A program made the position numbers and the translations under genes. From positions 30,762-94,761 of the forward strand of contig JAIQFG010000007.1 in the NCBI GenBank assembly GCA_020073375.1: DNA of 64,000 bases, read 5' to 3'. Source of the stretch: Terriglobia bacterium (GTDB taxonomy: Bacteria; Acidobacteriota; Terriglobia; Acidiferrales; UBA7541). The notes below the pieces were generated by a model. It had not been told where the DNA came from, ran no database searches, and was given only the letters and a program-made list of their open reading frames with translations. Positions 33,518 through 51,228 of this stretch are shown here, one piece after another (positions within the stretch are counted from its first letter, which is position 1; each line of letters begins with the position of its first letter).

Positions 33518-34654
33518 TCAATTGTTTTGCCCGGGTCTTGCTCTGTAAGTCTTGGTGAAACCGTTTCTGGCGTTTGTGACCGTAAAGGAGCCATCCATTT
33601 GCGCCGAGACCTTAACCCAATATGCCGTTCCGTTGTGCGCTGGAGGTGGCGGCACGCCGGGCCCCGGTTGCGGAGCGGGCATGGGAGCCACGGGCATGGT
33701 GTCCTGCTGGTCGTCAATAGTGTTGGCGATGAACATTCCGGGCGCAGTGTACTCCTGGCCGCTGAGTAAGGAGAAGTGAAGCTGCCATAGATCCTCAAGA
33801 CCCGGAGCGGAATAAATAATCTTCATCGCGCTAGGTTGCCCACCCTTGCGAGTGCCGTTATTTAGGATGGCCACGCGAGGTTGGATTGCATGCACAAGCA
33901 CATCCGAATTCGACATGGGCTGCCCATGATGTGAGACGACCCAAAGATCAAAGGTCCCAATGCGATTGACCGGGCACATCATGTTGAATTCTTTATTCCA
34001 GGTCAGGTCACCCAAATGTGCAACCCGAAACTTCCCAAAGGTGACGACGCTTCCGACAGACATAGTGTTCTCAACGCCGCCATCATCATTCTTATCTTTG
34101 GGCTTGAAGTCCGCGCAGTATGGGTTCGGTTTACCCGCGCCAGGGAGAGACTCGGTGATCACCTCTCCCGCGGAGCTGACCAGACGCCAGTCCAGACCAG
34201 TAACGGGGAGCTTGTCCCCCGGTTTTGCGACCATATGCTTTGCCTTGCCGTAAAGCTCGGGATATGTTGTCTGCAGAAACGCATCGGCAATTGCGTTGGG
34301 CTGAACATTTGGGCCATGGTCGATGAACTTCTGGATTGGAATACGCCCGGCGAATTCTGCCATACCTCCAAAATGGTCGCCATGCCAATGCGTGGTAATC
34401 AGGTTGTCGATCTGCGTGAGGCCGGCATCTTTGACGGCGGCCATAATTCGGCTCGCATCTCTTGCCGCCGCCGGGCCGCCGTTTCCCGTGTCGATAAGAA
34501 CGGATTCGCCCGACGGTGCGACGAATAAAGTGGCGTTGCCACCCTCCACGTCCATCACGTAGATGTCCAATGTCTTGCGTGTTTGCGCTTGTACTGTCGG
34601 AAGGGCCCCGGCGAGACAGAGACTCAATAGAAACGCGATTGATAAGCGCATCAC
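33518..34654 (-). CDS. Secreted metallo-beta-lactamase-fold hydrolase
   Basis: Signal peptide MMRLSIAFLLSLCLAGALPTVQA. LIDTGNGG and the H-x-H-x-D-H motif in ITTHWHGDHFGG. Confidence 0.8.
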   Translation of the reverse strand: MMRLSIAFLLSLCLAGALPTVQAQTRKTLDIYVMDVEGGNATLFVAPSGESVLIDTGNGGPAAARDASRIMAAVKDAGLTQIDNLITTHWHGDHFGGMAEFAGRIPIQKFIDHGPNVQPNAIADAFLQTTYPELYGKAKHMVAKPGDKLPVTGLDWRLVSSAGEVITESLPGAGKPNPYCADFKPKDKNDDGGVENTMSVGSVVTFGKFRVAHLGDLTWNKEFNMMCPVNRIGTFDLWVVSHHGQPMSNSDVLVHAIQPRVAILNNGTRKGGQPSAMKIIYSAPGLEDLWQLHFSLLSGQEYTAPGMFIANTIDDQQDTMPVAPMPAPQPGPGVPPPPAHNGTAYWVKVSAQMDGSFTVTNARNGFTKTYRARPGQNN

Positions 34655-34836: not shown

Positions 34837-35352
34837 TTACTTCGGCGCAACGATGGGAACCGCCGCTCCGGCAGCAGGTCTCCACTTCCCGTTCTCCTTC
34901 ACAAACAGCCGGAGGAAGGTGACTTCCGACGTGAAGGTGACCTTGCCATTGGCATCGACGCTCTTGAAACGCGTGTGATCCGTCGCCATTGCGAAGTTTC
35001 CGTAGACTGCCATTAACTTAAAATTGTCCGGATAAGGTCCGACGCCGGGAACGTGTGTAGGTATCCCCGCGGTTTGCGAAGCGACCATCTCTGCTTTGGT
35101 AGAAATCTTTCCAGTCGCACCGACCTCGAAAAACTGGTCGGCCCAATACTTGCTGCGGAATTCCACGCAATCCTTAATGTCCTTATGATAGGGACCGGCG
35201 CCGGAACTGCACAGCCACTGCTGATCGGCGTCCCAGAGTATTTTTTCCAAATCGGCCCACTTTTTGCCGCCTTTCTTCATGGTTTCTTGTCCAAGAGCCA
35301 ATGAGGATGCGGTCATGAGAGACGCCAGAAGTAATACACGAAATGTTGTCAT
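34837..35352 (-). CDS. Secreted NTF2-like (DUF4440-type) protein, family copy 0
   Basis: Signal peptide. WADLEKILWDADQQWLCSSGAGPYHKDIKDCVEFRSKYWADQFFEV...FKLMAVYGNFAMATDHTRFK...LRLFVKENGKWRPA is the same consensus as the six plus-strand paralogs. Confidence 0.8.
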   Translation of the reverse strand: MTTFRVLLLASLMTASSLALGQETMKKGGKKWADLEKILWDADQQWLCSSGAGPYHKDIKDCVEFRSKYWADQFFEVGATGKISTKAEMVASQTAGIPTHVPGVGPYPDNFKLMAVYGNFAMATDHTRFKSVDANGKVTFTSEVTFLRLFVKENGKWRPAAGAAVPIVAPK

Positions 35353-35645
35353 TGAACCCTCCGCGTGCAGTTGCCTGCTTTTTACTACGTCTTGCGCGCA
35401 AGGTCAACACTCGTGCTCCGGGCGGACAAGCTTCTGGCTTTTGAAAACTCGCAACCTCATTCGGCGCGGACAACCATTTCGCTACTTCAATTCGCGGCCT
35501 ATGCTTCGTCCGCAACTCGAAATAGAGCTAAGCCGACGAAAGCTTCCTGAAGCGAATATTCCTAAAGAGCCACCAAGCACGAATGTCACGAGGATTGACT
35601 ACGGCACTTCCGAGTGCTACTTTTCAGGACAATCGGAGAGTCGGA

Positions 35646-37430
35646 ATGTCCACTTCTGAACTATCGTTGCAAACTCTACCCGGTGGAATTGCACTCGACG
35701 GCCGCACGGGAGAAGTGCTGAAAAACGGATTCAAGATCAACCTGCCCGAACAATTGTTTCGTCTCCTGGCTCTCTTAGGAGCGCGTGTGGGTGACATTGT
35801 GACACGGGAAGAGATTCGAAGGAGCCTTTGGTCTGAGAACCTCGTCAATAACGTAGATGACAGTATCAATACGGCTATCAGAAGGTTGCGGCAATACCTG
35901 GAAGGCATGGTCGGGGCCCCTCTGCTTATCGAGACGGTGCCCGGGCGCGGGTATCGCTTTGTTGAGCCGGGGGCGAAGCCGAATACAATTCCGTCACTTC
36001 GCGAAAACGCGCCTGAGCTGGGGAGATGCCGCTTGGCTGCTTTGCCATTCGACCATTTGTCAGGCAATTCCGAAAAAAAATACTTCGCCGACAGTCTGAC
36101 GGATGCCGTGATTACGGCGCTCGCCAAAATCCCGGCACTCTCCGTCAAGCCGCGATGCCTTGTGATGGGCTACAAGCAATTGCGTATGGGACTTGCCGCG
36201 ACGGGCAGAAAACTAAAAGTGGACGCGGTGCTGCAGGGTTCGGTCGCGTATTTTGACGGCCGGTTGCGCGTAACAGTTCAACTCCTTCGCGTCGCGACAG
36301 AAGAGCACCTGTGGGCGGAGAGCTATATTTTTAGCTCCGGTGACATCCTGGACTTCCAAATGGATGTGGCCGGCAGGATTTCTACGCACGTGGCCGCCAA
36401 ATTGGTTCCGACCCGGGAAAGCCGGCCATCGTATGTCCCGCCGATACCCATCGCCCACGACGCGCATCTAAAGGCGCACCAAACGTTTAACGCCTTTACC
36501 AACGAAGGATTCTGGAATGCGCGCCGGTATTGGAAGGAAGCCATCCATCACGATCCCGATTATGCCCAGGCTTTCGCCGGCCTGGCCGAGTCCTACAACA
36601 TGCTGGGCATGACAGGGCTATTGCATGCGAAGGATGCCCTGGGTGAAGCGCAAGAAGCGGCAAAAAGAGCCATGGAGATTGACGATTCCCTGACCGAAGC
36701 CCACGCTGCGCTGGCCCACACGTATATGGTGGAATGGAATTGGAAGGCTGCTGCCCAGGAGTTCAGGCAAGCCCTGCAGCTGGACCCAAATTTAACGGTA
36801 GGGAACCCTTGCCACTACGTCGAATTCCTGATGGCTGCAGGCGAGCCGGACGAAGCCATCAAAGAGATCGAGCGAATCCGGTCGGCTCGACCGCTCGCAA
36901 ATTTTCTGGGCAACATAGTCGGATGGGCCTACTACGGAAACCGGAACTATGACCGGGCGCTTCGACAACACCATAACATTCTGAAGGACGACCCGAAATT
37001 TGGTTTGACTCACGTGATGCTTGGATTGGACTACGCCCAAAAGAAGCGATATCGAACTGCAATCGAACATTGTGGCAAGGTCACCTCCAGCGGCGGAACA
37101 CGGATTGCCCTCAACACATTGGGATACATTTATGCGGCGGCAGGCGAGAAACACTGCGCAAAGGAAATTCTAAGAGAATTAAAGCGGCTGCTTCGAACCG
37201 ACTACGCTTCCTGTTACGCCTGCGCTGCCATCTACGCCGGAATGGGCGAGGTGGATTTGGCGTTCGACTTTCTCAACCGAGCCTGCGAAGTCCATGATCC
37301 CGGATTGCTCTGGCTCAAATGGGACCCGCAACTGGACAACCTCCGGTTTGATCCGCGTTTCCAAGGTTTGTTGAATCGAATGGGGCTGCAGGCGGCCCTA
37401 CCCAACGGACGCCCCGTAGCTACCGTGTGA
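35646..37430 (+). CDS. Transcriptional regulator: OmpR/CadC-type winged helix + TolB-like region + TPR repeats
   Basis: ORF 35583..37430, ATG 35646 preferred. REEIRRSLWSENLVNNVDDSINTAIRRLRQYL...IETVPGRGYRF (trans_reg_C-type wHTH). RLAALPFDHLSGNSEKKYFADSLTDAVITAL. C-terminal TPR helices. Confidence 0.8.
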   Translation: MSTSELSLQTLPGGIALDGRTGEVLKNGFKINLPEQLFRLLALLGARVGDIVTREEIRRSLWSENLVNNVDDSINTAIRRLRQYLEGMVGAPLLIETVPGRGYRFVEPGAKPNTIPSLRENAPELGRCRLAALPFDHLSGNSEKKYFADSLTDAVITALAKIPALSVKPRCLVMGYKQLRMGLAATGRKLKVDAVLQGSVAYFDGRLRVTVQLLRVATEEHLWAESYIFSSGDILDFQMDVAGRISTHVAAKLVPTRESRPSYVPPIPIAHDAHLKAHQTFNAFTNEGFWNARRYWKEAIHHDPDYAQAFAGLAESYNMLGMTGLLHAKDALGEAQEAAKRAMEIDDSLTEAHAALAHTYMVEWNWKAAAQEFRQALQLDPNLTVGNPCHYVEFLMAAGEPDEAIKEIERIRSARPLANFLGNIVGWAYYGNRNYDRALRQHHNILKDDPKFGLTHVMLGLDYAQKKRYRTAIEHCGKVTSSGGTRIALNTLGYIYAAAGEKHCAKEILRELKRLLRTDYASCYACAAIYAGMGEVDLAFDFLNRACEVHDPGLLWLKWDPQLDNLRFDPRFQGLLNRMGLQAALPNGRPVATV

Positions 37431-37852: not shown

Positions 37853-37945
37853 AAGAACACGACACTAGTTCAAGCAGGGAATTCCAGGCGAGGAAGCTGA
37901 TTTAGGTTGGGGGTGGCGCAGATCAGGAAGATCGGAGGCGAGGTT

Positions 37946-40900
37946 ATGAATTTTCTCTCGTATAGGAAATGGGTGTGGGCACTCAAACTCTTGATGTTCG
38001 CGGCGTTCCTCACTTTTTGTGTAGCACCACGTTTGTCCGCGCAAGTCACGGGAGGAACCATTTCGGGCACCGTTACCGATGCGTCGGGCGGGGCAATTCC
38101 CATGGTGGAAATCTCCATTCTCAATACGGCCACAGGCGTGGTCTCGACGGCTACGACGAGCGCCGAGGGCTTTTATTCGGTGCCGAACCTCTTGCCCGGG
38201 CCTTATCAGGTCACTGCCAAGAATGCAGGTTTTTCCACCGCGATCGTGAACGGCGTCACCTTGACCGTCGGCGCGCAACAAGCAGTGAACATCTCATTGA
38301 AAGTGGGAGAAACCTCGCAACAGGTGGAAGTGAGCGCATCCGCGGTTACGATCGACCTGGTGTCATCATCCATCAGCGCCGTGGTAACTGGGCCGACGGT
38401 TCGCGAATTGCCGCTAAACGGCCGTTCCTGGACGGACCTGGCGCAACTTCAACCGGGCCTCAACAACGTTACCACTCAGCCGCCTGCGACTTCCACGGAC
38501 CGGGCGTCGCGTGGTTGGGGAGCGATCTTGTCCATCTCCGGAGGGCGCGGCACATCGAATAATTATCGCCTCAACGGAATCAGCCTCAACGACTCCTTTA
38601 ACGCAGCGCCGGGCAGCTTTACGACCGGGAATCTGGGCGTGGATGCCATTGGCGAGTTTTCCGTATTAACGGGGAATTTTTCCGCTGAATATGGGAAGTC
38701 TTCAGGCGGGGTGATCAACGCCATCACCCGATCGGGGACCAATGAAATTCATGGGACTATTTTTGAGTTCATGCGCAACAAAGTTCTTGATGCCAAGGAC
38801 TTCTTTGTTGCGCCTGGCAAACCCATCCCGCCTTTCGTCCGAAATCAGTTTGGGGCCGCGGCAGGAGGTCCCATCCAGAAGGACAAGATGTTCGTTTTTG
38901 CCAATTACGAGGGATTACGCGAAGCTTTGTCCGGCGCGAAAACCATTAAAGTGCCCTCGGCTACGGCGCGCCAGGGCCGGCTATGCTCGGGTACCCCGGC
39001 AGCAAACGATCATTGCGCCACGACCACGCCAATCCCGTTAATACAACCTGTTGGCGGCCCGGTGTTAACCAGTCTTCCTGGCTTACCCTATGTGAATTTG
39101 TGGCCATCGCCCACTACGCTTATCTGCCCCACAGGTTATGCGCCCTGTGCCCCAAACTCGGGTAACACCGGTACAACCTCCGTCGTGCTCCCGGGACGCA
39201 CAAGCGAGAATTACTTTACGGTTCGAGTGGATCGAAAGTTCGGTTCGAATGACAGTCTGTTCGGCACGTACGTGCGCGACCGCCAGTCTCAAGGTGCGCA
39301 AGACAACCTGTCCGCGCTGGCTACCAGACGGCAGATGTTCCGGCAGACCTACACCGTAGAAGAAAGCCACGTGATCTCGCCAGCCATCATCAACGTCTTC
39401 CGGGTAGGTTTCCACCGGCAAGGCATCGATAATCCCAGCGGCGCAGATGCACTGAACCCGATTGCGGGGGACACCACGTTGGGGCTTTTGCCCAACCAGA
39501 GTATTGGGAGAATCGAGGTCCCTGGACTTGAAACCTTTGCCGGGGGAACTGCCCTCTATCAGCCGAATACGATTATCTGGAACTCGTATCAGGTGTATGA
39601 CGACCTCTTTATTACCAGGGGTATTCACGCCATTAAATTTGGAGTTGCCCTGGAAAAAGACCAGCGGAACACGAAAGGCCCCGGTGGATTTGCCGGCGGC
39701 AGGTCTATTTTTTCCAACTTTACCAACTTCATGCAGGGCAGTCCGAGTTCCCTGATCTTCAATGCAGGAGGCGGGGATCTCTCGGGCCATTTGAGTCAGT
39801 GGGTATATGGGGCATACGTGCAAGACGACATCCACCTGACGCCGCGCCTTACGTTGAACGCTGGGTTGCGCTACGAGTATGCGACGACCGTACACTCTAA
39901 GGGTACGGGATCGATCTCGAGTCTTCAGTGTCTCTCCTGCGAATTTCCGATCATCGATAGCCCGATCACTGCAAACCCCGTATTGGCCGCGCTGGTGGCG
40001 GCAGCGAACCCGAATCAAGTCTACGGGCCCATCATTCATCCATCCCGCTGGAACTGGGCGCCGCGCGTTGGTCTTGCGTGGGACCCGTTTGGCAATGGAA
40101 AAACTGCCATACGCGCCGCCTATGGGATCTACGACGTCCTTATCCAATTCCCCAATTACGGCAGCGCCCTTGCCAGCACCTGGCCGGGCCTGCAGTCCAA
40201 TAACAGCGGCACAGTCCCGGCGGCGTCCTGGCCAAAGGGTGGGGGCTTTGCTGGCGGCAATCCATTGGATCCGGCCGTGCTGAATACGAAGCGTGTCGAT
40301 TTCACGGAACAAAATCCTCCAACGAGCTACGCGATGCAATGGAACCTCAACATCCAACAGGAAATTACCAATACCCTGTCGGTCCAGGTCGGTTACGTGG
40401 GGACAAGGACCATCCACAACGTAAATCAAATGAATGACGGCAACATGCGATTACCAAATCTGGTGTCGGGACAACCCCTGTGGCCGTGCGGGCCCGGCGC
40501 CATCGTCGTGGTCAACCCCCAAGCCGATTGCCCATTATTCGCCAGCACACCCCCGAGCAATTTGCACGTTGGTCGAATGCCGATGCAAAACTATAACTCG
40601 AACGCCCTCTACGATGGCTTGCAAGTGGGCGTCACAAAAAATGTGAGCCATGGCCTGATGGTTAAGGGGTCTTACACCTTTTCCAAGAACATCGACACAG
40701 GTTCCGGGGCAGGCATAACCGACCCTTATGTTAATGCATTGGTAAACACCGTGTACTATTGGGATCCGGGACTGCGGCGCGCCCGGGCGGACACGGACAT
40801 GAGGCATAACCTGGTGATCAGCTATACCTACAACTTTCCCGACCCATCGGCAGACGTGGCCGGAGGGGTCTTGAAAGCCGTTGCCGGCGGCTGGCAGACG

Positions 40901-41413
40901 GGAGCGATCATCACAGCCCAGACCGGCCTGCCGTTTACGCCCCGAGTCGGTGGAAATGGGGCGGACTCCGTCGGCATGGGCGGCACGGATGCGATCAATT
41001 GGCCGGATCTTGCTAAGGGTTGTTCAAAATCAGACCTCGTCAACCATTCCGGCGACAGGCTCAATTACATCAATACCGCCTGCTATGCGTTTCCCGGAAC
41101 GGTTTCATACAATGGCAGCACCTGGCTGCGCACCGGCAACCTGGGTCGCAATTCAATCAACGGCCCGGGGCTGATGACCGTCAACTTCTCCCTGTTCAAG
41201 AACAACTACATCCACAGAATCTCGGAGACGGCGAATCTGCAGTTCCGATTCGAAGCCTTCAACGTCTTTAACCGTCCCAATTTCCTGGCGCCGGTCCCGG
41301 ATGACGAGCAACTCTTTGAAGCGACCGGTGGAGCAATTGCCGGCGCGGGCCGAATACAGGAAACGACAACCACAGCGCGGCAATTGCAGTTTGCGTTGAA
41401 GTTGATTTTTTAA
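37946..41413 (+). CDS. Oar-type TonB-dependent receptor with CarboxypepD_reg-like N-terminal domain
   Basis: ORF 37907..41413, ATG 37946 (GGAGG upstream; signal ...CVAPRLSAQ). GTISGTVTDASGGAIPMVEISILNTATG...YSVPNLLPGPYQV. Plug-like VRELPLNGRSWTDLAQLQPG. Long barrel region. Terminal RQLQFALKLIF. Confidence 0.85.
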   Translation: MNFLSYRKWVWALKLLMFAAFLTFCVAPRLSAQVTGGTISGTVTDASGGAIPMVEISILNTATGVVSTATTSAEGFYSVPNLLPGPYQVTAKNAGFSTAIVNGVTLTVGAQQAVNISLKVGETSQQVEVSASAVTIDLVSSSISAVVTGPTVRELPLNGRSWTDLAQLQPGLNNVTTQPPATSTDRASRGWGAILSISGGRGTSNNYRLNGISLNDSFNAAPGSFTTGNLGVDAIGEFSVLTGNFSAEYGKSSGGVINAITRSGTNEIHGTIFEFMRNKVLDAKDFFVAPGKPIPPFVRNQFGAAAGGPIQKDKMFVFANYEGLREALSGAKTIKVPSATARQGRLCSGTPAANDHCATTTPIPLIQPVGGPVLTSLPGLPYVNLWPSPTTLICPTGYAPCAPNSGNTGTTSVVLPGRTSENYFTVRVDRKFGSNDSLFGTYVRDRQSQGAQDNLSALATRRQMFRQTYTVEESHVISPAIINVFRVGFHRQGIDNPSGADALNPIAGDTTLGLLPNQSIGRIEVPGLETFAGGTALYQPNTIIWNSYQVYDDLFITRGIHAIKFGVALEKDQRNTKGPGGFAGGRSIFSNFTNFMQGSPSSLIFNAGGGDLSGHLSQWVYGAYVQDDIHLTPRLTLNAGLRYEYATTVHSKGTGSISSLQCLSCEFPIIDSPITANPVLAALVAAANPNQVYGPIIHPSRWNWAPRVGLAWDPFGNGKTAIRAAYGIYDVLIQFPNYGSALASTWPGLQSNNSGTVPAASWPKGGGFAGGNPLDPAVLNTKRVDFTEQNPPTSYAMQWNLNIQQEITNTLSVQVGYVGTRTIHNVNQMNDGNMRLPNLVSGQPLWPCGPGAIVVVNPQADCPLFASTPPSNLHVGRMPMQNYNSNALYDGLQVGVTKNVSHGLMVKGSYTFSKNIDTGSGAGITDPYVNALVNTVYYWDPGLRRARADTDMRHNLVISYTYNFPDPSADVAGGVLKAVAGGWQTGAIITAQTGLPFTPRVGGNGADSVGMGGTDAINWPDLAKGCSKSDLVNHSGDRLNYINTACYAFPGTVSYNGSTWLRTGNLGRNSINGPGLMTVNFSLFKNNYIHRISETANLQFRFEAFNVFNRPNFLAPVPDDEQLFEATGGAIAGAGRIQETTTTARQLQFALKLIF

Positions 41414-41436
41414 GCTTCGCATTCGCTTTGCGGGTA

Positions 41437-41465
41437 GCGAGGGAGGACATCGCGTCCTTCCTCGC
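41437..41465 (+). terminator. Hairpin (attenuator/terminator candidate) after the receptor gene
   Basis: GCGAGGGAGGA-catcgcg-TCCTTCCTCGC, an 11-bp stem with one G-U. Only a short TT follows. Confidence 0.4.
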
Positions 41466-41506
41466 TTCGGTATTGGCAAGTCAATTTGTCTGGATGGAGT
41501 TCCGAT

Positions 41507-42466
41507 ATGAAAATGTCATGGGCGCTGATTCTAATTCTGTTCGCAGGCTGTGGGCCGGCCGGCAACGCGCCGCCGGCGGCGACTCAAACGGCGAGCAACG
41601 ACAACGCGGATTTGGAGAAAGTGCTTGAGGACGTCAATCACCAATGGCTGTGCAGCGGACCCTATCAGAAACCATATAAAGATTGTGTCGAATTTCGTAG
41701 TAAGTACTGGGTCGATCAATTCTTTGAGGTTGTATCCACTGGGGACCTGTTGAACAAGGAAGAGATGGTTGCCACACAAACGGCCGCTATTCCGTCCAAC
41801 CCGGCGCCGGGGACCGGACCATATCCCGACGCGTTCAAATTGAGGGCGGTGTACGGCGACTTCGCGATGGCCACGGATCATACGAATTTCAAGACTGCCG
41901 ACAAAAATGGGAAGCTCACCTTTACATCGAATTCCAAAGTGCTCAGGTTATTCGTAAAAGAGAATGGGGCCTGGAGACCTGCCGCGGCAGGGTTGGTCCC
42001 GATAATTTCTCCGCCGACTACTGCGCGTCCGAATAAGCATTCCGCTACTCCACACAAGAGTCCGGATGAGCAACTGGAAAAGGTACTCGCAGAGGCCGAT
42101 CGCGCCTGGATGGATTCCAGCGATCTAGACAAGAGGCTCGCCTATATCAATAAATTATTTACCGACCAGTGGTTCGAGATTCTCGGCTGGGACCCCACCA
42201 GAACTACTACTAAGTCCACGGTGTTAGAGGTCCTGCCGAAATTGGCTGGTACTAACAAGCCCGGTGAGGGCGTCGTTGCAGATCAATTTCAACTGCAAGC
42301 CGTTTTCGGAGACGTGGCGCTCGCGAGCGACCGCAGAACCAGAACTTGGACGGACGAAAAGGGCCACCTCGTGAAAACCCCTCACCGGACTCTCTTGGTT
42401 TTTGTGAAACAGAACGGTGAATGGAAATCCGCCGGGGCGTCGCTTACTCCAATCCTGACTCCGTAG
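41507..42466 (+). CDS. Lipoprotein with two tandem NTF2-like (DUF4440-type) domains, family copies 1 and 2
   Basis: ORF 41486..42466, with ATG 41507 giving MKMSWALILILFAGC (lipobox). Domain 1 has the Cys pair (HQWLCSGPYQKPYKDCVEF). Domain 2 (LEKVLAEADRAWMDSSD...LLVFVKQNGEWKSA) lacks it. Confidence 0.8.
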   Translation: MKMSWALILILFAGCGPAGNAPPAATQTASNDNADLEKVLEDVNHQWLCSGPYQKPYKDCVEFRSKYWVDQFFEVVSTGDLLNKEEMVATQTAAIPSNPAPGTGPYPDAFKLRAVYGDFAMATDHTNFKTADKNGKLTFTSNSKVLRLFVKENGAWRPAAAGLVPIISPPTTARPNKHSATPHKSPDEQLEKVLAEADRAWMDSSDLDKRLAYINKLFTDQWFEILGWDPTRTTTKSTVLEVLPKLAGTNKPGEGVVADQFQLQAVFGDVALASDRRTRTWTDEKGHLVKTPHRTLLVFVKQNGEWKSAGASLTPILTP

Positions 42467-42524
42467 GGGCGAATGAAACGGCCATCGAACGGCCGATTGA
42501 TTCTAAGGTGAGAGGAGTTTTCGG

Positions 42525-43037
42525 ATGAGATATGCAATTGTGCTTTCGCTGCTCGTGCTTTCGAGTTTTCCAGCGCCCGCCTTTTCTCAACAATCGATGA
42601 AAATGGGCGATAAGGACTGGGTCGCCCTGGAGAAAGTTCTGGATGACGTTAACAATCAGTGGCTGTGTGCCGGGAAGTATTACAAGGCCAAGAGGCAGGA
42701 TTGTGTGGATTTCAGGGCCAACTTTTGGCCCGATCAATTTTTCGAGGTAGGCCAAACCGGGAAGACTCAGACCAAGGCAGAGATGGTCGCATCGCAATCG
42801 GCCGCTGCTGCGAAGAGTCCGGACGTCGTCCGCGACACCGGACCTAATCCACAGGAATTCAAGCTGATGTCGGTCTATGGTGACATCGCGCTCGCGACGG
42901 ACCACACTGTATTCAAAACTGCCGACGCCAGCAGCAACGTATCGGTCACGTCAGAAGCCAATGTTCTTAGAATGTTTGTGAAGGAGAATGGGAAATGGAG
43001 GCCCGCGGGGGCAGTGCTGATACCGATCAAGAAATAA
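42525..43037 (+). CDS. Secreted NTF2-like (DUF4440-type) protein, copy 3
   Basis: GAGGAG SD. Signal peptide. WVALEKVLDDVNNQWLCAGKYYKAKRQDCVDFRANFWPDQFFEV...LRMFVKENGKWRPA. Confidence 0.8.
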   Translation: MRYAIVLSLLVLSSFPAPAFSQQSMKMGDKDWVALEKVLDDVNNQWLCAGKYYKAKRQDCVDFRANFWPDQFFEVGQTGKTQTKAEMVASQSAAAAKSPDVVRDTGPNPQEFKLMSVYGDIALATDHTVFKTADASSNVSVTSEANVLRMFVKENGKWRPAGAVLIPIKK

Positions 43038-43184
43038 ACTCGCGCCGGTCCTGACAATGCAATCAAGGCACTGTTTGTGAGGATCGAGTTGCAGTCGTCT
43101 ATCGCGAACTGGACTTATGCACCAGAATTCCAGTGTGCCTCACAGCAGAGAATCGATTCTTATCGGCCAAGGAGGAAGTGCCGT

Positions 43185-43673
43185 ATGAAATTCGCATGGG
43201 TGCTGATTCTGTGTGTTCTTGGAAGTTTTACTCTGCCGGTCCACGCTCAGGAGAAGGCCCCCAACAGCACGAGAAATGCGGCGTTGGAGAAGGAACTCTA
43301 CGCAGTTGAACTGAAATGGATGCAGGCGGAGCACGATAAGAAAATGAGCGGTCCGGATAGCATGGGAGAGTTGTGGATGGATGATTTCTTCGATGTGCTC
43401 TCTGGAGGACGCGTAGTCAATAAGCAAGAAATGATGGACATGATGGCCAAGGCGGATCCCAAGCCGGGAACCGGGGCCTTTCCAGTTGATTTCAAGATAC
43501 GCGCAATTTACGGCAACGTTGTATTGGCAACCGATCACACGACGATCAAGGGACTGGACGCCAACGGCAAAATCGTTCCCGTGAGAGAAATGAATGTGCT
43601 TCGGATGTTTGTAAAGGATAAGGGAAAGTGGAGAGTAGCTGGGGCAGGATTGGTGCCAGTCGCCGCGCCCTAG
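43185..43673 (+). CDS. Secreted NTF2-like (DUF4440-type) protein, copy 4 (divergent, Cys-less)
   Basis: ORF 43077..43673, ATG 43185 preceded by GGAGGA. ALEKELYAVELKWMQAEHD...FKIRAIYGNVVLATDHTTIKG...LRMFVKDKGKWRVA. Confidence 0.8.
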   Translation: MKFAWVLILCVLGSFTLPVHAQEKAPNSTRNAALEKELYAVELKWMQAEHDKKMSGPDSMGELWMDDFFDVLSGGRVVNKQEMMDMMAKADPKPGTGAFPVDFKIRAIYGNVVLATDHTTIKGLDANGKIVPVREMNVLRMFVKDKGKWRVAGAGLVPVAAP

Positions 43674-43757
43674 GTTGTAAAACCAGGTACGAAGTGCACT
43701 ACGACTGCACTGTGCCAGACATCAGCCTCATGTAGCCAAACCGAGAGGAGTTTCTGG

Positions 43758-44276
43758 ATGAGAAATGTTTTGATTGCGGTCTTAATTGCGCTTTCCGCCC
43801 TCTCCATTCCAGCCATGGCTCAAGAGAAAGTGACTAAGGGCGACAAGAACTGGGCCGCTTTGGAAAAAGTTCTCGATGACGTTAATAATCAGTGGCTATG
43901 TGCGGCGTCGTATCACAAGAACAAGGCACAAGAGTGCGTAAATTTCCGCGCCCAGTATTGGGCCGATGAATTTTTCGAGATCTATCCTTCAGGACAAATT
44001 CAAACCAAGGCAGAAATGGTTGCTTCGCAATCGGCCGGCGCCTCTGCTCACCCTGATTCCGCCCCCGGTACGGGGCCTAATCCGCAGGAATTCAAATTGA
44101 TGGCAGTGTACGGCAACGTTGCGCTGGCGACCGATCACACTATTTTTAAATCGATCGACTCCGGCGGAAACCTCGCGGTGACTTCGGAAGCGCGGGTTCT
44201 CAGGATATTCGTGAAGGAAAACGGGAAGTGGAGGCCTGCCTCGGCGGCATTGGTTGGTATCGAAAAGCCCAAATAG
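43758..44276 (+). CDS. Secreted NTF2-like (DUF4440-type) protein, copy 5
   Basis: GAGGAG SD. The upstream region resembles that of 42525. WAALEKVLDDVNNQWLCAASYHKNKAQECVNFRAQYWADEFFEI...LRIFVKENGKWRPA. Confidence 0.8.
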   Translation: MRNVLIAVLIALSALSIPAMAQEKVTKGDKNWAALEKVLDDVNNQWLCAASYHKNKAQECVNFRAQYWADEFFEIYPSGQIQTKAEMVASQSAGASAHPDSAPGTGPNPQEFKLMAVYGNVALATDHTIFKSIDSGGNLAVTSEARVLRIFVKENGKWRPASAALVGIEKPK

Positions 44277-44323
44277 GGCGAGGCAAGGCGGCCTTGGGAA
44301 CTCGAAGATAAGAGGTGATTAAG

Positions 44324-45361
44324 ATGGCGAGACGCTTGCTGATTGCGTTGTCAATCCTCACGTTTTTCTTGACCGTAGCTCACGGGCAGGACTGGAATTT
44401 TATTGCTCGACTAAATCCCGCTTTAGATGAAATTGTTCCCGCCGATGCGAAAGTAGAGAAACTGGCCGATAGTTTTGGCTTCCTCGAAGGGCCTGTTTGG
44501 GTCCGCAAGGGTGGGTACCTTCTTTTTAGCGATATCCCGGCAAATGTAATTTACAAGTGGAGTCCCAATGATGGAAAAGTCTCAATTTTCCTTCCCTACA
44601 GCGGGTTTACCGGGACAGACGACACGAATGTCGGCATGCAGCTTAACAATGGACGCGCAATGGTCACACTGCTTGGCTCCAATGCAGTGACAGTGGATCC
44701 GCAGGGGCGAATTGTTTATTGCGCTCACGGAGATCATCAGGTCGTGCGATTGGAGGCGGACGGTCGCCGTACGGTTTTGGCAAGTGAATTCGAGGGGAAA
44801 CGACTCAACAGTCCTAACGACCTCATTTACAAATCCGATGGAACTCTTTACTTTACTGATCCCCCAGCAGGTTTTCGCGACGGAGATAAAGACTCGAAGA
44901 AGGAATTGCCATTCACGGGGATATTCATGCTGAAGGGCGGCAAACTCCAATTGATCAGCAAAGATCTGCGGCCGAACGGTCTCGCCTTCTCGCCTGACGA
45001 AAAATATATATATCTGGTAGATGGAACAGACGGCAAGAAGGCCCTTCGCCGTTTCGAAATGCAGCCGGATGATACCCTCACCAACGGCCAACTTTTTGTT
45101 GACATGACCTCTGATAAGTCGCCGGGAGGGCCAGATGGCATAAAAGTGGATCAAAGAGGCAACGTCTATTCCACAGGTCCGGGGGGAGTGTGGATTATGG
45201 CGCCAGATGGAAAACACCTGGGAACGATCATGACTACCGAACTCCCAGCGAATCTGGCATTCGGTGAAACGGATAACAAAACTCTCTTTCTCACAGCTCG
45301 AACTGGGCTTTATCGGATTCGCCTGAAGATCCCGGGGATACCACCTCCGGGGAATTCTTGA
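44324..45361 (+). CDS. Secreted SMP-30/gluconolactonase/LRE-like beta-propeller
   Basis: ORF from GTG 44315; ATG 44324 (MARRLLIALSIL) preferred. LLFSDIPANVIYKW, SPNDLIYKSDGTLYFTDPP, RPNGLAFSPDEKYIYLVD, PDGIKVDQRGNVY and PANLAFGETDNKTLFLTA. Confidence 0.8.
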   Translation: MARRLLIALSILTFFLTVAHGQDWNFIARLNPALDEIVPADAKVEKLADSFGFLEGPVWVRKGGYLLFSDIPANVIYKWSPNDGKVSIFLPYSGFTGTDDTNVGMQLNNGRAMVTLLGSNAVTVDPQGRIVYCAHGDHQVVRLEADGRRTVLASEFEGKRLNSPNDLIYKSDGTLYFTDPPAGFRDGDKDSKKELPFTGIFMLKGGKLQLISKDLRPNGLAFSPDEKYIYLVDGTDGKKALRRFEMQPDDTLTNGQLFVDMTSDKSPGGPDGIKVDQRGNVYSTGPGGVWIMAPDGKHLGTIMTTELPANLAFGETDNKTLFLTARTGLYRIRLKIPGIPPPGNS

Positions 45362-45513: not shown

Positions 45514-46761
45514 ATGAAGCGAAATCTATATGTTGGAGCGATATTTCTGGGGCTCTTGGCTGCGCTTGGAGTGGGATCGACTCTGCTTCAGAAGCGAGCC
45601 GCTGTCGAGGCCGCCGCGGTTCAGGCGCCGATGTTTGAAGTCGATCCGCTGTGGCCAAAGCCGTTGCCGAACCATTGGCTCATCGGAATGACCATCGGCG
45701 TGTCCGTTGACGCGCAGGACAACGTCTGGATCGTTCACCGCCAGGGTTCGCTGGAACCAGGCGAGCTGCACGCCGCCACGAACCCGCCGCTAGCTCAATG
45801 TTGCATGGCAGCTCCGCCGGTTCTGGAGTTTGATCCGGCGGGAAACCTGCTCCACCACTGGGGCGGACCCGGAAACGGCTACGATTGGCCGGATTCAAAC
45901 CACGGAATTACCATCGATTACAAAGGCAACGTCTGGATTGGCGGCAACGGCCGGGGCCGTCAGGCCGCACGGCCCGCGGGCGGAGCGCCCGACGAATCCG
46001 CAGCGTCCGCAACCCAGTCTTACCTCGACAATCAGGTTTTGAAATTTACGCAAGACGGCAACTTCCTGATGCAAATCGGCAAGCCCCACAGCAGCAAGGG
46101 CAGCAACGATATCGAAAATCTTCGTCTGCCTGCCAAAACGTTCATCGACAAGCAGACCAATGAAGTGTACGTCGCCGACGGTTACGGCAATCATCGCGTG
46201 ATCGTGTTCGACGCGGACACCGGCGCCTACAAGCGGCACTGGGGCGCCTATGGCCACAAGCCCGATGATACTGACCTCGGCAATTACAATCCGGATGCGC
46301 CGCCGGCCCAGCAGTTCCGCAACCCGGTGCATTGCGCCGATCTTTCGGTCGATCGCCTGGTGTATGTCTGTGATCGCGTGAACGACCGCATCCAGGTGTT
46401 CAAAACCGACGGAACCTTCGTAAAGGAAGGATTCATCGCCAAGCGCACGCTGGGCTCGGGTTCAGCGTGGGACATTGCGTTCTCCAAGGACCCACAGCAA
46501 AAATACATCTACCTGACCGATGGAGAGAACGATCGCATCCACATCCTGCTGCGCGATACGCTCGAAGTATTGACGACTTTCGGTGAGGGCGGACGCCAGC
46601 CGGGAGAATTCTACGGCCCGCACAGCATCGCCACCGATTCCAAAGGCAACATCTACGTAACGGAGACGTATCGCGGGCAGCGCGTTCAGAAATTCGTTTA
46701 CAAGGGATTGGGGCCGGTCACCAAGGAAGATCAAGGCGTTCTGTGGCCGACGAAGAAATAG
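45514..46761 (+). CDS. Secreted NHL-repeat propeller (paralog of 23398..24537)
   Basis: AGGAGG SD. MFEVDPLWPKPLPNHWLIGMTIGVSVDAQDNVWIVHRQG, NEVYVADGYGNHRVIVFD, LVYVCDRVNDRIQVF and GNIYVTETYRGQRVQKF. Confidence 0.8.
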   Translation: MKRNLYVGAIFLGLLAALGVGSTLLQKRAAVEAAAVQAPMFEVDPLWPKPLPNHWLIGMTIGVSVDAQDNVWIVHRQGSLEPGELHAATNPPLAQCCMAAPPVLEFDPAGNLLHHWGGPGNGYDWPDSNHGITIDYKGNVWIGGNGRGRQAARPAGGAPDESAASATQSYLDNQVLKFTQDGNFLMQIGKPHSSKGSNDIENLRLPAKTFIDKQTNEVYVADGYGNHRVIVFDADTGAYKRHWGAYGHKPDDTDLGNYNPDAPPAQQFRNPVHCADLSVDRLVYVCDRVNDRIQVFKTDGTFVKEGFIAKRTLGSGSAWDIAFSKDPQQKYIYLTDGENDRIHILLRDTLEVLTTFGEGGRQPGEFYGPHSIATDSKGNIYVTETYRGQRVQKFVYKGLGPVTKEDQGVLWPTKK

Positions 46762-46810: not shown

Positions 46811-47323
46811 ATGACAAAATTTCGCGTGCTGTTTGTGGTGGCCCTGATGGCCGTGGCGTCGTTCGCCCACGCACAGGATTCGATGAAGAAGGGCGACAAG
46901 GCCTGGACGGATTTGGAAAAGCAACTCGCGGACGTCAACGACTATTGGGTCTGCGCCCACAAGTACCACAAGAATCACGCCCAGGATTGCGTCGACGCCA
47001 AAAATGCGATTTGGCCCGCTGCATTCTTTGAAATCAGCATGCAAGGGGAAGTCACCGACAAGCAAGAAATGGTGAAGCGGCAGACCGCGACCGCCACGGC
47101 TCATCCGGTTTCTCCCGGTGACGCCGGGCCAAATCCTCAGGACTTCAAGTTGATGGCGGTCTACGGGAACGTCGCACTCGCGACGGATCGCACCGTTTTC
47201 AAAGCCGCCGACGACAGCGGCAAGATATCGGTAAGGGACGAGGCAACGGTGCTCCGAATGTTCGTCAAGCTGAACGGCAAGTGGGTGCCTGCAGGCGCCG
47301 CACTAGTGCCCGTGAAACCGTAA
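46811..47323 (+). CDS. Secreted NTF2-like (DUF4440-type) protein, copy 6
   Basis: ORF 46796..47323, ATG 46811 preceded by GGAGGA. WTDLEKQLADVNDYWVCAHKYHKNHAQDCVDAKNAIWPAAFFEI...LRMFVKLNGKWVPA. Confidence 0.8.
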   Translation: MTKFRVLFVVALMAVASFAHAQDSMKKGDKAWTDLEKQLADVNDYWVCAHKYHKNHAQDCVDAKNAIWPAAFFEISMQGEVTDKQEMVKRQTATATAHPVSPGDAGPNPQDFKLMAVYGNVALATDRTVFKAADDSGKISVRDEATVLRMFVKLNGKWVPAGAALVPVKP

Positions 47324-47429: not shown

Positions 47430-48626
47430 ATGAACATGAGGAAATCGGCGGCGCTACTCTCGGCGCTGGCAGCAGTTCTTGTCGGCGTCTGGTTTAGATC
47501 GAACGCCCAGAATGGCGCTGTAGCCATTCCCCTGAAATCGGTCCCGACTTTTTCCACCGCCAACATCGGGCGCCAAGGCCATTTTTATGTGGGAGGCAAG
47601 TGGGTGGGGGAGCCTGGCAAGGAAACCATGGATGGTGCGATGTATGTTGAAGTATGGGTGCCGAAGGATATCGGACATCCCTATCCGATCGTGTTCGTAA
47701 CCGGCGGAGGGGGGCAAGGTGCGTATAGCATGATTCAAACGCCGGACGGGCGTCCGGGTTGGGCCTATGATTTCGTCAACCAAGGCTATACCGTGTATTT
47801 GATGGACTATCCAGGGACAGGGCGTTCGGCGTATGTTCCCGGAGTTGACGGCACGGTGACACCTCCACGTTCAGGTCCACTGATGGAGGAGGTCTGGTCG
47901 GGTGGCCGTCCGGCCGCAACTCCGCAGAGCAGTTGGCCTCAGGCAAAAAAGTATACCCAGTGGCCTAGCGATGCGCCGAATAAGGGGAAAATGGGCGACC
48001 CGGTGTTCGACTATTTCGCGAAGACCGAACTCCAGGCGGTGGCCAGTCCAAATAACGCACAGATTATTACAGACACTGTTGTGCAATTATTGGATCTGAT
48101 CGGCCAGCCAGTCGTCCTGATGGTCAACTCTGGGGTCGCATCTTCCGGATGGGTGGCCGCAGATGCCCGGCCGAAACTGGTCAAGGGCATCCTCGCTGTC
48201 GAACCTGTCGCCCCGCCAGTCGAGAACGCGGAGAGGGGATCGACAGGGCCGGGACGTCTTTGGGGCGTGACCTCTCTTCCGATCCATTACGATCCTCCCA
48301 TCAAGGAGCCATCCGAATTGCGGCCTGTTCGTGAAGAGAAAGCGGATGGGCCAGACCTCATTCCATGCTGGATTCAGCAGGAACCCGCACACAAGCTCGT
48401 AAACTTGCAGGGTATCCCTGTCCTCGAAGTGTCCGGGGAGGCAAGCTACCACCGTCCGTACTCCCATTGCGTAGCCAAGTGGCTCAATCAGGCAGGTGTA
48501 AAGACCACTTATGTGAGGCTCGAGGATGTTGGCCTATCAGGCAACGGCCATCAAATGATGTCCGAAAAGAACAGCGCTGGTATCTCGAAGTATTTCATGA
48601 GCTGGCTCGATAAGAACGTTCACTGA
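47430..48626 (+). CDS. Exported ~400-aa alpha/beta-hydrolase-fold protein, paralog 1 of 3
   Basis: Signal/anchor MNMRKSAALLSALAAVLVGVWF. VPTFSTANIGRQGHFYVGGKWVGEPGKETMDGAMYVEVWVPK, elbow-like LMVNSGVASSGW and C-terminal VGLSGNGHQMMSEKNSAGISKYFMSWLDKNVH. Confidence 0.8.
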   Translation: MNMRKSAALLSALAAVLVGVWFRSNAQNGAVAIPLKSVPTFSTANIGRQGHFYVGGKWVGEPGKETMDGAMYVEVWVPKDIGHPYPIVFVTGGGGQGAYSMIQTPDGRPGWAYDFVNQGYTVYLMDYPGTGRSAYVPGVDGTVTPPRSGPLMEEVWSGGRPAATPQSSWPQAKKYTQWPSDAPNKGKMGDPVFDYFAKTELQAVASPNNAQIITDTVVQLLDLIGQPVVLMVNSGVASSGWVAADARPKLVKGILAVEPVAPPVENAERGSTGPGRLWGVTSLPIHYDPPIKEPSELRPVREEKADGPDLIPCWIQQEPAHKLVNLQGIPVLEVSGEASYHRPYSHCVAKWLNQAGVKTTYVRLEDVGLSGNGHQMMSEKNSAGISKYFMSWLDKNVH

Positions 48627-48719: not shown

Positions 48720-49316
48720 ATGATAAAGGTTCGCGTGGCGTTAATAATTGGGCTTATGGCCATTTCATGCATGGCCTCGGCTCAAGAAACTATGAAGAAA
48801 GGCGACAAAGCTTGGACAGAATTGGAAGCGACGCTTAGAGACGCTAATCTCAAATGGCTGTGCCAGGGGAAGTACTATAAGCCGAAAAGACAAGATTGCG
48901 TGGATTTGCGGGCCAAGTATTGGGACGATCAATTCTTCGAGATGAACCCGGGGGCCAGCGGCACGCAAACCAAAGCACAGATGGTCGAGGGGCAAACCGC
49001 GGGCGCCAAGACTTACCCAGACGTCGTGCGTGGTGAGGGACCGAATCCAACTGAGTTTACGTTAATGGCGGTCTACAACAACGGAACCTTCGCGATGGCG
49101 GTCGATCACACCTCATTCAAAATACGCTTGAACGCACAAGGACAACCTGACTTCGAACATGTGTCCCCAACTAATAAAACCGGCCACTGGTTCCTAGATG
49201 AAAGCGGCAAGCTGGCCGTGGTACGGGAAGTTACTTACGCCCGCGTATTTGTTAAGAAAAACGGGGAGTGGAGACCTGCGGTCGGTGCTTCATCTCCTCG
49301 TGCACCATCGAAGTAA
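48720..49316 (+). CDS. Secreted NTF2-like (DUF4440-type) protein, copy 7 (with ~25-aa insertion)
   Basis: GGAGG SD. WTELEATLRDANLKWLCQGKYYKPKRQDCVDLRAKYWDDQFFEM...FTLMAVYNNGTFAMAVDHTSFK + inserted IRLNAQGQPDFEHVSPTNKTGHWFLDESGK + YARVFVKKNGEWRPA. Confidence 0.8.
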   Translation: MIKVRVALIIGLMAISCMASAQETMKKGDKAWTELEATLRDANLKWLCQGKYYKPKRQDCVDLRAKYWDDQFFEMNPGASGTQTKAQMVEGQTAGAKTYPDVVRGEGPNPTEFTLMAVYNNGTFAMAVDHTSFKIRLNAQGQPDFEHVSPTNKTGHWFLDESGKLAVVREVTYARVFVKKNGEWRPAVGASSPRAPSK

Positions 49317-49475: not shown

Positions 49476-49835
49476 ATTCGCAGGATTGGGTATTTACAGC
49501 AGCTAAGGGAGGCGGAAGCTGCCCCGAGACCGCAAGCCAATGTGCCGAAGTTCGAGGTTGATCCTTTTTGGCCCAAGCCGCTCGGGAACATGTGGGTAAC
49601 GGGCGAAGTGGCCGGCACTTGCGTGGACGCTCAGGACCATGTGTTCATCGTGAATCGAAACAATTTGACACCGGACGAATTGAGAAATTCGCGGCCGTCA
49701 CCCGCGATCATCGAATTCGATCCCCAAGGCACTGTGGTCAATTCCTGGGGCGACAGGAAAATTCTCCCCACCGGAAGTCTCCATGGCTGCACGATCGGCG
49801 GCGAGGGTAGCAATTGGCGGGGACGATGCCATTAA
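49476..49835 (+). pseudogene. Truncated NHL-propeller gene (N-terminal third only, no signal peptide)
   Basis: LQQLREAEAAPRPQANVPKFEVDPFWPKPLGNMWVTGEVAGTCVDAQDHVFIVNRNN...IEFDPQGTVVNSWG...HGCTIGGEGSNW parallels residues ~25-135 of the 45514 protein. The frame is closed by TAG at 49473 upstream and stops at 49835. Confidence 0.65.
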
Positions 49836-49995
49836 TCCGGTCGGACGTGGCTACCCCTGAGGGCGCGGGAGCGAACGCACTCCCACCTGCCGCGAACTAG
49901 AATGCTTAGCATTTCGCGCTGTATTAGATCTCTTACGTATGGTTTGCACGGAATCTCAATATGAAAAATCAAGAGACACGAGGAAAGGGGATTTC

Positions 49996-51228
49996 ATGAC
50001 CTGGAAGAGACTGACCCCTGTACTCTCAGCGCTGGCTGTGGTTCTTGCGGGCGTCTGGTTTGCCATGAGATCTCATGCCGTCGGCGCTGTTCCCGGATCA
50101 TCGATCCCCACATTCTCCACTGCTGAAATCGGGAGGGAAGGGCATTTCTATGTAGGCGGCCATTACGTGGGCGAGCAGGGCAACGAAACGATGCACGGCG
50201 CCATGTACGTGGAAACGTGGGTACCCAAGAAAGTCCGGCATCCCTATCCGATCGTAATTATCGGCTTCAGTGTGGGACAGGACGAGTATGAATTTATGCA
50301 AACGCCTGACGGCCGGCCGGGCTGGGCATACGACTTTGTGAATCAGGGCTACACTATTTACATGATGGATTTTCCGGGGCTGGGGCGCGCGGGATTTATT
50401 CCCGGCGTGGACGGCGAGCCTACGCCCCAGCGCTCCACCAATCTGATCGAGGAGATCTGGACCGGCGGGCGATCACCCGCTTCGGAGTGGAGTAAAGAAC
50501 AGCATGTCCGCGAGAAGCGAGTACAAGAATTCGCAGACTGGCCGCAATGGAAAAAGGAAACGCAGTGGCCAGGGGAGTCGGGTAAAGGAAAAAAGGGCGA
50601 ACCGGCCTTCGACTACTACGCCAAAATGGAAGTGAACGGCGTGTCTAAGTTCGATTTGGAAGGCAAAGATACACGCGACGACCTCGTTCAGCTCCTGGAC
50701 ATGATCGGCACACCGGTCGTCCTGTTGCTCCACTCAGGTTCCGCGGTGGGTTGGCTGGTAGCGGACTCGCGGCCGCAACTCGTCAAAGCGATCATCGCGG
50801 CGGAACCGAACTCGCCTCCGATCATGAACGCAGAGCGGGGTGTGGCGGGGCCGGGAAATGTGTGGGGCTTGACGCGGACGTTCATTCACTATGATCCTCC
50901 AATCACTGAAGCTTCGGAATTGCTCCCTGTTCGCCAGGAGATAGCGGACGGCCCGGACCTTCTTCCGTGTTGGGTGCAGAGCGAACCCGCGCATAAGCTC
51001 GCCAATCTGAAGGCGATCCAAGTGTTGAACGTTACCGGGGAGGCGAGTTACCACCGCCCTTACGCTCACTGTGAAGCCAAGTGGCTCAATCAGGCGGGCG
51101 TAAAGACCACGTTTGTGAAACTCGAAGACGTTGGATTGTCCGGTAACGGGCACCAGATGATGTCGGAAAAGAACAGCGCGGAAATTGCGAGGTACTTCAT
51201 GGGCTGGCTCGACAAGAACGTCCAGTGA
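49996..51228 (+). CDS. Exported ~400-aa alpha/beta-hydrolase-fold protein, paralog 2 of 3
   Basis: ORF 49939..51228, ATG 49996 (MTWKRLTPVLSALAVVLAGVWF). IPTFSTAEIGREGHFYVGGHYVGEQGNETMHGAMYVETWVPK, LLLHSGSAVGW and VGLSGNGHQMMSEKNSAEIARYFMGWLDKNVQ. Confidence 0.8.
   Translation: MTWKRLTPVLSALAVVLAGVWFAMRSHAVGAVPGSSIPTFSTAEIGREGHFYVGGHYVGEQGNETMHGAMYVETWVPKKVRHPYPIVIIGFSVGQDEYEFMQTPDGRPGWAYDFVNQGYTIYMMDFPGLGRAGFIPGVDGEPTPQRSTNLIEEIWTGGRSPASEWSKEQHVREKRVQEFADWPQWKKETQWPGESGKGKKGEPAFDYYAKMEVNGVSKFDLEGKDTRDDLVQLLDMIGTPVVLLLHSGSAVGWLVADSRPQLVKAIIAAEPNSPPIMNAERGVAGPGNVWGLTRTFIHYDPPITEASELLPVRQEIADGPDLLPCWVQSEPAHKLANLKAIQVLNVTGEASYHRPYAHCEAKWLNQAGVKTTFVKLEDVGLSGNGHQMMSEKNSAEIARYFMGWLDKNVQ

Follow-up and report, generated by a model that had tools for sequence, protein, structure and literature searches.

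The 64,000-nucleotide (nt) window analysed here comes from a soil acidobacterium (Acidiferrales) whose metagenome-assembled genome comprises 5.29 Mb in 176 contigs and is 94.7% complete. The locus under study in this window is a genus-restricted expansion of exported DUF4440 proteins (Pfam PF14534) in a regulator/TonB-receptor operon with hydrolases. At its centre lies a gene (41507-42466) that encodes a predicted lipoprotein with two fused DUF4440 domains. Coordinates without a contig label are positions in the window; L001, L010 and similar labels denote related loci from other genomes or metagenomes, sourced from Candidatus Acidiferrales/Acidiferrum and other Terriglobia metagenome-assembled genomes. 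The alignment of the eight DUF4440 domains of the locus is called A1, paired support values (x/y) refer to a tree of 56 domains, and PF14534 scores are to be read against the gathering cut-off of 25.2 bits. The structural model of the fused protein was made with AlphaFold2 (AF2), with its predicted local distance difference test (pLDDT) and predicted template-modelling (pTM) scores. The DUF4440 features of the locus are as follows.

41507-41551, + strand: signal peptide with lipobox L-F-A-G-C, read from the sequence; Cys15, predicted to be lipidated, at 41549-41551
41606-42007, + strand: domain 1 of the fused gene, Cys-pair type, PF14534, nested in the Cys clade; Cys49 at 41651-41653 and Cys60 at 41684-41686
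42008-42064, + strand: inter-domain linker of ~19 residues, rich in Pro, Thr and Lys; AF2 residues 168-187 without secondary structure, pLDDT ~75
42065-42466, + strand: domain 2 of the fused gene, Cys-less, stop codon included; SnoaL_3/DUF4440 match, own clade with support 100/99
34837-35352, - strand: single-domain Cys-pair DUF4440; PF14534 31.8 bits, groups with the domain-1 clade (82/92)
42525-43037, + strand: single-domain Cys-pair DUF4440; PF14534 28.7 bits, orthologs in L001, L010, L087 and L090
43185-43673, + strand: single-domain Cys-less DUF4440 (43185-type); PF14534 34.2 bits, clade support 99/95
43758-44276, + strand: single-domain Cys-pair DUF4440; PF14534 34.0 bits, Cys motif in 120/120 metagenome homologs
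46811-47323, + strand: single-domain Cys-pair DUF4440, WVC variant, usually 3' of an NHL gene; identified in A1, clade support 100/100
48720-49316, + strand: single-domain Cys-pair DUF4440 with a ~25-residue insert (A1 columns 143-165); clade support 100/100

The fused gene encodes 319 amino acids, has a GGAG 7 nt 5' of its ATG and begins M-K-M-S-W-A-L-I-L-I-L-F-A-G-C. This N-terminus matches the pattern expected of a lipoprotein processed by signal peptidase II, with a K-containing n-region, a hydrophobic core and a lipobox, followed by a Pro/Ala-rich stretch that would serve as a tether. Residues 1-29 have a pLDDT below 50 in the AF2 model, which fits a flexible tether of this kind. Pfam detects two PF14534 stretches in the protein (42.3 bits), the second half also being recognized as SnoaL_3. 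An earlier interpretation of this DNA, made without database searches and referred to here as the sequence-only reading, had described a lipobox and two full domains in one chain, and both the open reading frame and the Pfam matches bear this out. It had also asked whether fused versions recur elsewhere. They do: of the 120 best matches among 344 full-length metagenome homologs, 118 have both domains in one frame, and a second fused gene is present in the same genome (contig C134). First domains constitute one clade (99/93) within the Cys clade, beside the 34837-type single-domain proteins, and the 34837 protein is the nearest single-domain relative of domain 1. Second domains constitute a separate clade (100/99) whose internal order broadly matches that of the first. 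Since first and second domains are each monophyletic with broadly matching internal orders, the tree fits a single fusion event. The fusion is a real and ancient gene arrangement.

Three single-domain genes follow directly 3' of the fused gene, and every single-domain protein of the locus starts with a Sec-type signal ending A-x-A before Q. Five of the seven locus proteins pass the PF14534 threshold; the 46811 and 48720 proteins fall below it (16.3 and 17.4 bits, respectively) and are 49-56% identical to the 34837 protein in A1. Paralogy within the genome is evident from E-values of 1e-32 to 1e-72. Domain 2 and the 43185 protein are 32-46% identical to the other domains, compared with 45-65% among the Cys-type domains. 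Thus, the sequence-only reading was correct in placing three exported paralogs directly after the fused gene (open reading frames, Sec signals and DUF4440 matches), in taking the domains as exported (Sec signals and lipobox) and in calling domain 2 and the 43185 protein the most divergent.

A cysteine pair of the form W-[LV]-C-x(10-13)-C-V occurs in six of the eight domains (34837, domain 1 of 41507, 42525, 43758, 46811 and 48720), as had been reported from the sequence. A1 modifies that report in one member only, since 46811 reads WVC instead of WLC; the spacing between the two Cys is x10, x11 or x13. Neither domain 2 nor the 43185 protein has a Cys in its mature part (A1). Both Cys are present in 28/28 Cys-clade domains, in 115/118 first domains of fused homologs and in 120/120 homologs of the 43758 protein; the three exceptions lack the whole motif, and a single Cys was found in 0/266 sequences. 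Second domains are Cys-free in all 118 fused homologs. In the AF2 model of the fused chain, domain 1 has helices at 30-47 and 57-67 and a curved sheet. Cys49 stands two residues past the end of helix 1 (residue 47) and Cys60 in the first turn of helix 2, so that the two bracket a 10-residue excursion. The same two helices are joined in domain 2 by a 3-residue turn, which would bring the two Cys positions close together at the loop base. The pair is most probably a disulfide, stapling an enlarged helix 1-helix 2 loop, judging from the model and the joint conservation of the two Cys. The genome contains two DsbA-like (Thioredoxin_4) matches in open frames of ~330 residues (C67:21063-21530 and C114:1356-1793).

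The 56-domain tree contains three supported clades, namely the Cys-pair clade (28 rows, 97/98), the domain-2 clade (100/99) and the 43185-type clade (99/95). The Cys state changes once on this tree, compared with an average of 19 changes when labels are shuffled (0/500 shuffles as low). More distant relatives are also Cys-less and fall outside all three clades; therefore, the Cys-less state is probably ancestral and the pair was probably gained once. The sequence-only reading had proposed two subtypes, Cys-pair and Cys-less. The clades are real, but there are three of them. Domain 2 weakly joins the Cys clade in the unconstrained tree (83/75), and a topology in which domain 2 and the 43185-type are forced into one clade is neither supported nor rejected by the approximately unbiased test (p = 0.50). 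Within the Cys clade, the orthogroups are 42525, 43758, 46811, 48720 (with the insert) and 34837/domain 1, each of them with orthologs in other genomes.

The whole genome holds ~19 domains of this family, the second fused gene included. Among 201 genomes sampled from the order, nine had a match at E <= 1e-20: the genome itself, seven of the ten others of the same genus and one of two from a second genus. A further sample of 400 genomes from across the phylum gave no match at E <= 1e-15. These counts (9/201 and 0/400) mark the subfamily as lineage-specific. It is common in soil metagenomes, where the fused protein has 344 full-length homologs and a single-domain protein has 438. One related contig, L012 (DATHNC010000123.1), is labelled Candidatus Saccharimonadales, and its fused gene lies deep within the Acidiferrales clade on a branch of length 0.008; the contig is most likely mis-binned, by its position in the tree, rather than a case of transfer.

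The leaders of 42525 and 43758 had been noted as alike and taken to point to gene duplication. The likeness is real, in that both share an 11-nt Shine-Dalgarno stretch, GAGAGGAGTTT, four further bases and the codons ATG-AGA. Upstream of these ~15 nt the two leaders are without similarity, and GGAGG-type sites at the same spacing precede other genes of the locus. The synonymous divergence (dS) between 42525 and 43758 is 2.3, i.e. saturated. Given this saturation, the separate orthologs of each paralog and the make-up of the shared stretch, a Shine-Dalgarno sequence and start codon, the leader is not a scar of recent duplication. These comparisons indicate that the duplication is ancient and that the likeness reflects a constraint on translation initiation. 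A check of selection across the paralogs, also suggested at the time, was informative qualitatively, dS being saturated or undefined in most pairs: the nonsynonymous divergence (dN) lies far below saturated dS, and the ratio omega, where dS is defined, is ~0.04-0.10, similar to that of the neighbouring NHL and receptor genes. Both halves of the fused gene are under purifying selection.

The whole arrangement of the locus recurs in L001, L010 and L087-L090. Among 73 aligned fused homologs, 39 have a lipobox at the same position, and these correspond to the orthogroup closest to the window protein. They make up essentially one clade, apart from two nested Sec-type exceptions on long branches. 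A receptor gene lies directly upstream in all seven lipobox loci with readable context (window, L001, L010, L087, L088, L089 and L090) and in 0/17 of the Sec-type fused loci examined, which instead follow metallo-beta-lactamase (MBL) or NHL genes or sit in a neighbourhood of glyoxalase-like, LVIVD, major facilitator superfamily (MFS) and UbiD genes. The link between lipobox and receptor is kept down to ~67% identity. A 43185-type gene follows the fused gene within one to two genes in 10 loci. Other recurrent modules are an NHL gene followed by a Cys-type DUF4440 gene (46811-, 43758- or 48720-type) and an MBL gene followed by a 43185-type gene. The receptor genes of L010, L087, L088 and L089, which come from long-read metagenome assemblies, are split into several frames; the flanking small genes are intact, and the breaks are therefore probably indel errors rather than marks of pseudogenes.

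In the window, the series runs from a winged-helix/tetratricopeptide repeat (TPR) regulator through the TonB-dependent receptor, the fused lipoprotein gene and the three single-domain DUF4440 genes to an SMP-30/gluconolactonase-type propeller, an NHL propeller, the 46811 gene, a carboxylesterase-like hydrolase, the 48720 gene, an NHL stump and two esterase paralogs. Gaps between genes within the series are 38-147 nt. An MBL-fold hydrolase and one further DUF4440 gene (34837) lie upstream on the opposite strand. The context features are given below.

33518-34654, - strand: exported MBL-fold hydrolase; PF00753, 49.8 bits, homologs recurrently adjoin 43185-type and fused DUF4440 genes
35583-37430, + strand: OmpR/CadC-type winged-helix and TPR regulator at the head of the locus; PF00486 and TPR families
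37907-41413, + strand: TonB-dependent receptor (CarboxypepD_reg, Plug, OMP_b-brl_4); PF25183 557 bits, PF13620, PF07715
41436-41466, + strand: 13-bp G+C-rich hairpin directly 3' of the receptor stop codon; intergenic fold -36.6 kcal/mol, z = -2.7
44315-45361, + strand: exported SMP-30/gluconolactonase-type beta-propeller; PF08450 137 bits, closest solved structures the gluconolactonases 3E5Z and 3DR2
45514-46761, + strand: exported NHL-repeat beta-propeller; PF01436, weak match to the peptidylglycine amidating lyase 3FVZ
47430-48626, + strand: exported carboxylesterase-like alpha/beta hydrolase; phmmer matches to esterase 1QLW (4e-14) and SulE 8GOL (3e-12), no Pfam match

The regulator is kept upstream of the receptor in L001, L010 and L087-L090. 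The stem of the hairpin is conserved in L001 and L010; it has no T tract 3' of it, is absent from the output of the terminator scan and may serve for mRNA stabilisation or attenuation at the junction of the receptor gene with the genes downstream. Promoter and terminator scans over 41300-44400 gave matches no commoner than those in shuffled sequence. The hydrolase at 47430-48626 is one of three exported, Pfam-negative paralogs of ~400 residues, the others being at 49939-51228 and 51185-52552; the third is 71% identical to the first. SulE, which it resembles, is a sulfonylurea herbicide esterase (PMC10356948). At 49542-49835, a 97-codon stump without a signal peptide shares 42% identity with the NHL protein over residues 39-141 of the latter; an NHL gene probably once stood here, between 48720 and the second esterase gene, and was deleted except for this piece.

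Further arrangements were seen at related loci. In C36 (L083:2963-10045), a second regulator/TonB-receptor series includes a lactonase that itself bears a lipobox (…I-F-A-G-C), then another lactonase and two divergent Cys-less DUF4440 genes. The a/b DUF4440 pair of this type is adjacent in seven genomes, and an SGL-SGL couple followed by a DUF4440 pair is recurrent. Since the C36 series parallels the window locus, heterotypic DUF4440 pairs beside receptor and lactonase genes appear as a repeated theme in the genus. The second fused orthogroup (C134:79225-80160 on the - strand, and L058:9407-17605) has a Sec signal in place of the lipobox and adjoins a two-domain gene of the glyoxalase/extradiol-dioxygenase-like kind, an LVIVD propeller, an MFS transporter, a UbiD-family decarboxylase and an NHL protein, a neighbourhood that suggests aromatic-acid metabolism. 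In L087, an orthologous locus from another metagenome, a tannase/feruloyl-esterase gene (539-2083, PF07519) is preceded by a 42525-type DUF4440 gene, with the regulator just downstream.

The fused protein is modelled by AF2 as two NTF2 cones (pLDDT 87.8, pTM 0.86). Each half consists of helix-helix-(strand)-helix followed by four long strands, the alpha+beta cone of the NTF2-like superfamily. A Foldseek search at E <= 1e-3 returned 238 PDB matches, of which the best 50 are all NTF2-like (E about 1e-6, 10-20% identity); the nearest are NTF2-like structural-genomics entries (2R4I, 3HX8, 3FSD and 2CHC) and CaMKII hub domains. A candidate two-domain match, the tandem VirB8-like OrfG, has a Foldseek TM of 0.22 and is not real. 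No solved structure was found at E <= 1 when structure sequences were searched with the family profile, and NCBIfam assigns no family to the locus proteins. The ketosteroid isomerase-related family TIGR02096 reaches at best 15.4 bits, for the 43185 protein only, compared with a cut-off of 97.1.

The locus proteins share with Pfam DUF4440 both the profile and the fold of three helices packed into a curved sheet. Compared with DUF4440 at large, the window subfamily is narrow and is set apart by its Cys pair, which is derived, its lipobox and the fusion of two unlike domains in tandem. They also resemble DUF3828, DUF3887 and DUF4878, NTF2-like families of secreted or lipid-anchored proteins that have been proposed to bind small molecules (Eberhardt et al., 2013; PMC3924330), in having a signal peptide or lipobox, an association with hydrolases and a proposed small-molecule-binding cavity. 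Those are other Pfam families, however; here the link to hydrolases is through the operon rather than through domain fusion, and the tandem is NTF2+NTF2. DUF4440 itself co-occurs with alpha/beta hydrolase domains (PMC3924330). In gene order only, the locus is reminiscent of SusD-like lipoproteins, with a lipoprotein gene directly 3' of a CarboxypepD_reg-type receptor and a dedicated regulator. Pfam detects only DUF4440 and SnoaL_3 in the fused protein and its fold is NTF2-like, with no homology to SusD, whereas SusD has an all-helical TPR-like fold. To our knowledge, SusD is lacking in this acidobacterial lineage. Enzymes of the ketosteroid isomerase, SnoaL and LinA type have the same superfamily fold, and homologs of the locus proteins carry the automatic JGI name 'ketosteroid isomerase-like'; the window proteins differ from them in showing no significant sequence match, in being exported, in having a putative disulfide type and in their many paralogs. 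A literature search on DUF4440 with TonB, or on NTF2-like lipoproteins with TonB-dependent transporters, returned nothing relevant.

The explanation that we favour, at about even confidence, is that the DUF4440 proteins are periplasmic or membrane-tethered small-molecule binders in a locus for the uptake of esters or lactones. By analogy, the binder role proposed for other NTF2-like DUFs agrees with the fold and export signals seen here and with a receptor operon rich in hydrolases. The Cys pair was probably gained once in one clade, where it would staple the enlarged loop between helices 1 and 2, and one ancient fusion joined a Cys-type to a Cys-less domain. On the branch in which the fused gene directly follows the receptor, the Sec signal would have given way to a lipobox and a ~20-residue tether. 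The tethered tandem protein and the soluble paralogs, located in the periplasm or at the outer membrane, may then use their cavities to bind a small hydrophobic or phenolic compound of the ester or lactone type. They would retain this compound or shuttle it between receptor and hydrolases encoded in the same locus, and a larger binding site may result where unlike domains pair. The fused-chain pTM of 0.86, the pairing of fused and 43185-type genes at 10 loci and the second, always adjacent heterotypic pair are consistent with heteromers, as far as models and gene order can indicate. The choice of phenolic esters or lactones is speculation hinted at by context, namely the esterase- and lactonase-like genes, the tannase/feruloyl-esterase gene of L087 and, next to the second fused orthogroup, the UbiD and dioxygenase-like genes.

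Several observations weigh against a binder role. Enzymes are as common as binders among proteins with NTF2-like folds, and most of the domains retain an A-T-D-H motif (A1). The link between lipobox and receptor, being essentially one evolutionary event, counts as one observation. At 20 loci, some of them in genomes of the same genus, NHL orthologs of 61-91% identity are present while a DUF4440 gene is lacking, and six of these loci carry the NHL-MBL pair; the hydrolases thus do not depend on the DUF4440 proteins. Many 34837-type genes, as well as the second fused orthogroup, sit outside receptor loci. With respect to the disulfide, profile searches of the genome, which is 94.7% complete, detected neither DsbB nor VKOR.

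The main rival, since NTF2-like proteins are often enzymes and the D-H motif is conserved, is that the DUF4440 proteins are periplasmic enzymes (isomerase, dehydratase, cyclase or epoxide-hydrolase-like) acting on the imported compound, each paralog with its own substrate or step. All eight domains share the Asp of the A-T-D-H strand, a Glu and two Lys, with the His in most; the Foldseek matches include the LinA dehydrochlorinase, the polyketide enzyme Aln2 and beta subunits of ring-hydroxylating dioxygenases; and the richness of the locus in catabolic enzymes and the JGI name of the homologs point the same way. However, the structural matches, at E about 1e-6 and 10-20% identity, are generic and single out no enzyme family, no solved structure is matched by sequence, TIGR02096 remains at 15.4 bits against its cut-off of 97.1, 46811 and domain 2 have Arg in place of the His of A-T-D-H, and ~19 paralogous domains per genome are unusual for a single catalytic step. 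An enzymatic role is on balance unlikely, while still a serious contender. It is also conceivable, with a distinctly lower probability, that the paralogs are dedicated partners (subunits, chaperones or inhibitors) of the neighbouring hydrolases, one type for each enzyme, with the fused lipoprotein as a covalent heterodimer. The recurrent NHL and MBL two-gene modules, the SGL-SGL couple with its DUF4440 pair and the fixed arrangement of domains 1 and 2 implied by the pTM of 0.86 would suit such partners, but the 20 NHL loci devoid of DUF4440 genes, including the six with an NHL-MBL pair, and the often solitary 34837-type genes speak against them. Finally, a source assembly of 176 metagenome-derived contigs could raise the suspicion that the fused gene arose through misassembly or a frameshift error, an eventuality that the sequence-only reading had itself named, and that the Cys pattern is due to chance. 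The 344 full-length homologs come from independent metagenomes, a second fused paralog exists in the same genome and purifying selection acts on both halves. The recurrence of both domains in frame (118 of the best 120) and the single change of Cys state, against a mean of 19 and 0/500 shuffles as low, exclude this explanation; the fused gene is genuine, and the probability of an artefact is negligible.

Acidobacteria are abundant in acidic, polyphenol-rich soils and possess very many TonB-dependent receptors, and we know of hardly any for which the substrates and accessory proteins have been established. The operon described here brings a receptor together with a tethered NTF2-like tandem, its soluble paralogs and exported hydrolases of four kinds, and is a candidate uptake-and-hydrolysis system for small esters or lactones. 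The Pfam family was already known, and the locus stands as a lineage-specific expansion of paralogs within it, not as a system of a novel sort; what is new is a delimited subfamily with a tandem lipoprotein form, its restriction to one genus and a neighbouring genus, the link between lipobox and receptor, and the succession of fused and 43185-type genes. A binder role, if confirmed, would give DUF4440 its first physiological context. It is a long shot that the tandem NTF2-like lipoprotein was recruited as a substrate-capturing TonB partner, with the soluble paralogs as heterodimeric periplasmic carriers of phenolic esters or lactones (e.g. tannin breakdown products). If true, the partnership of lipoprotein and receptor would represent a previously unrecognised type of receptor-linked binding-protein system.

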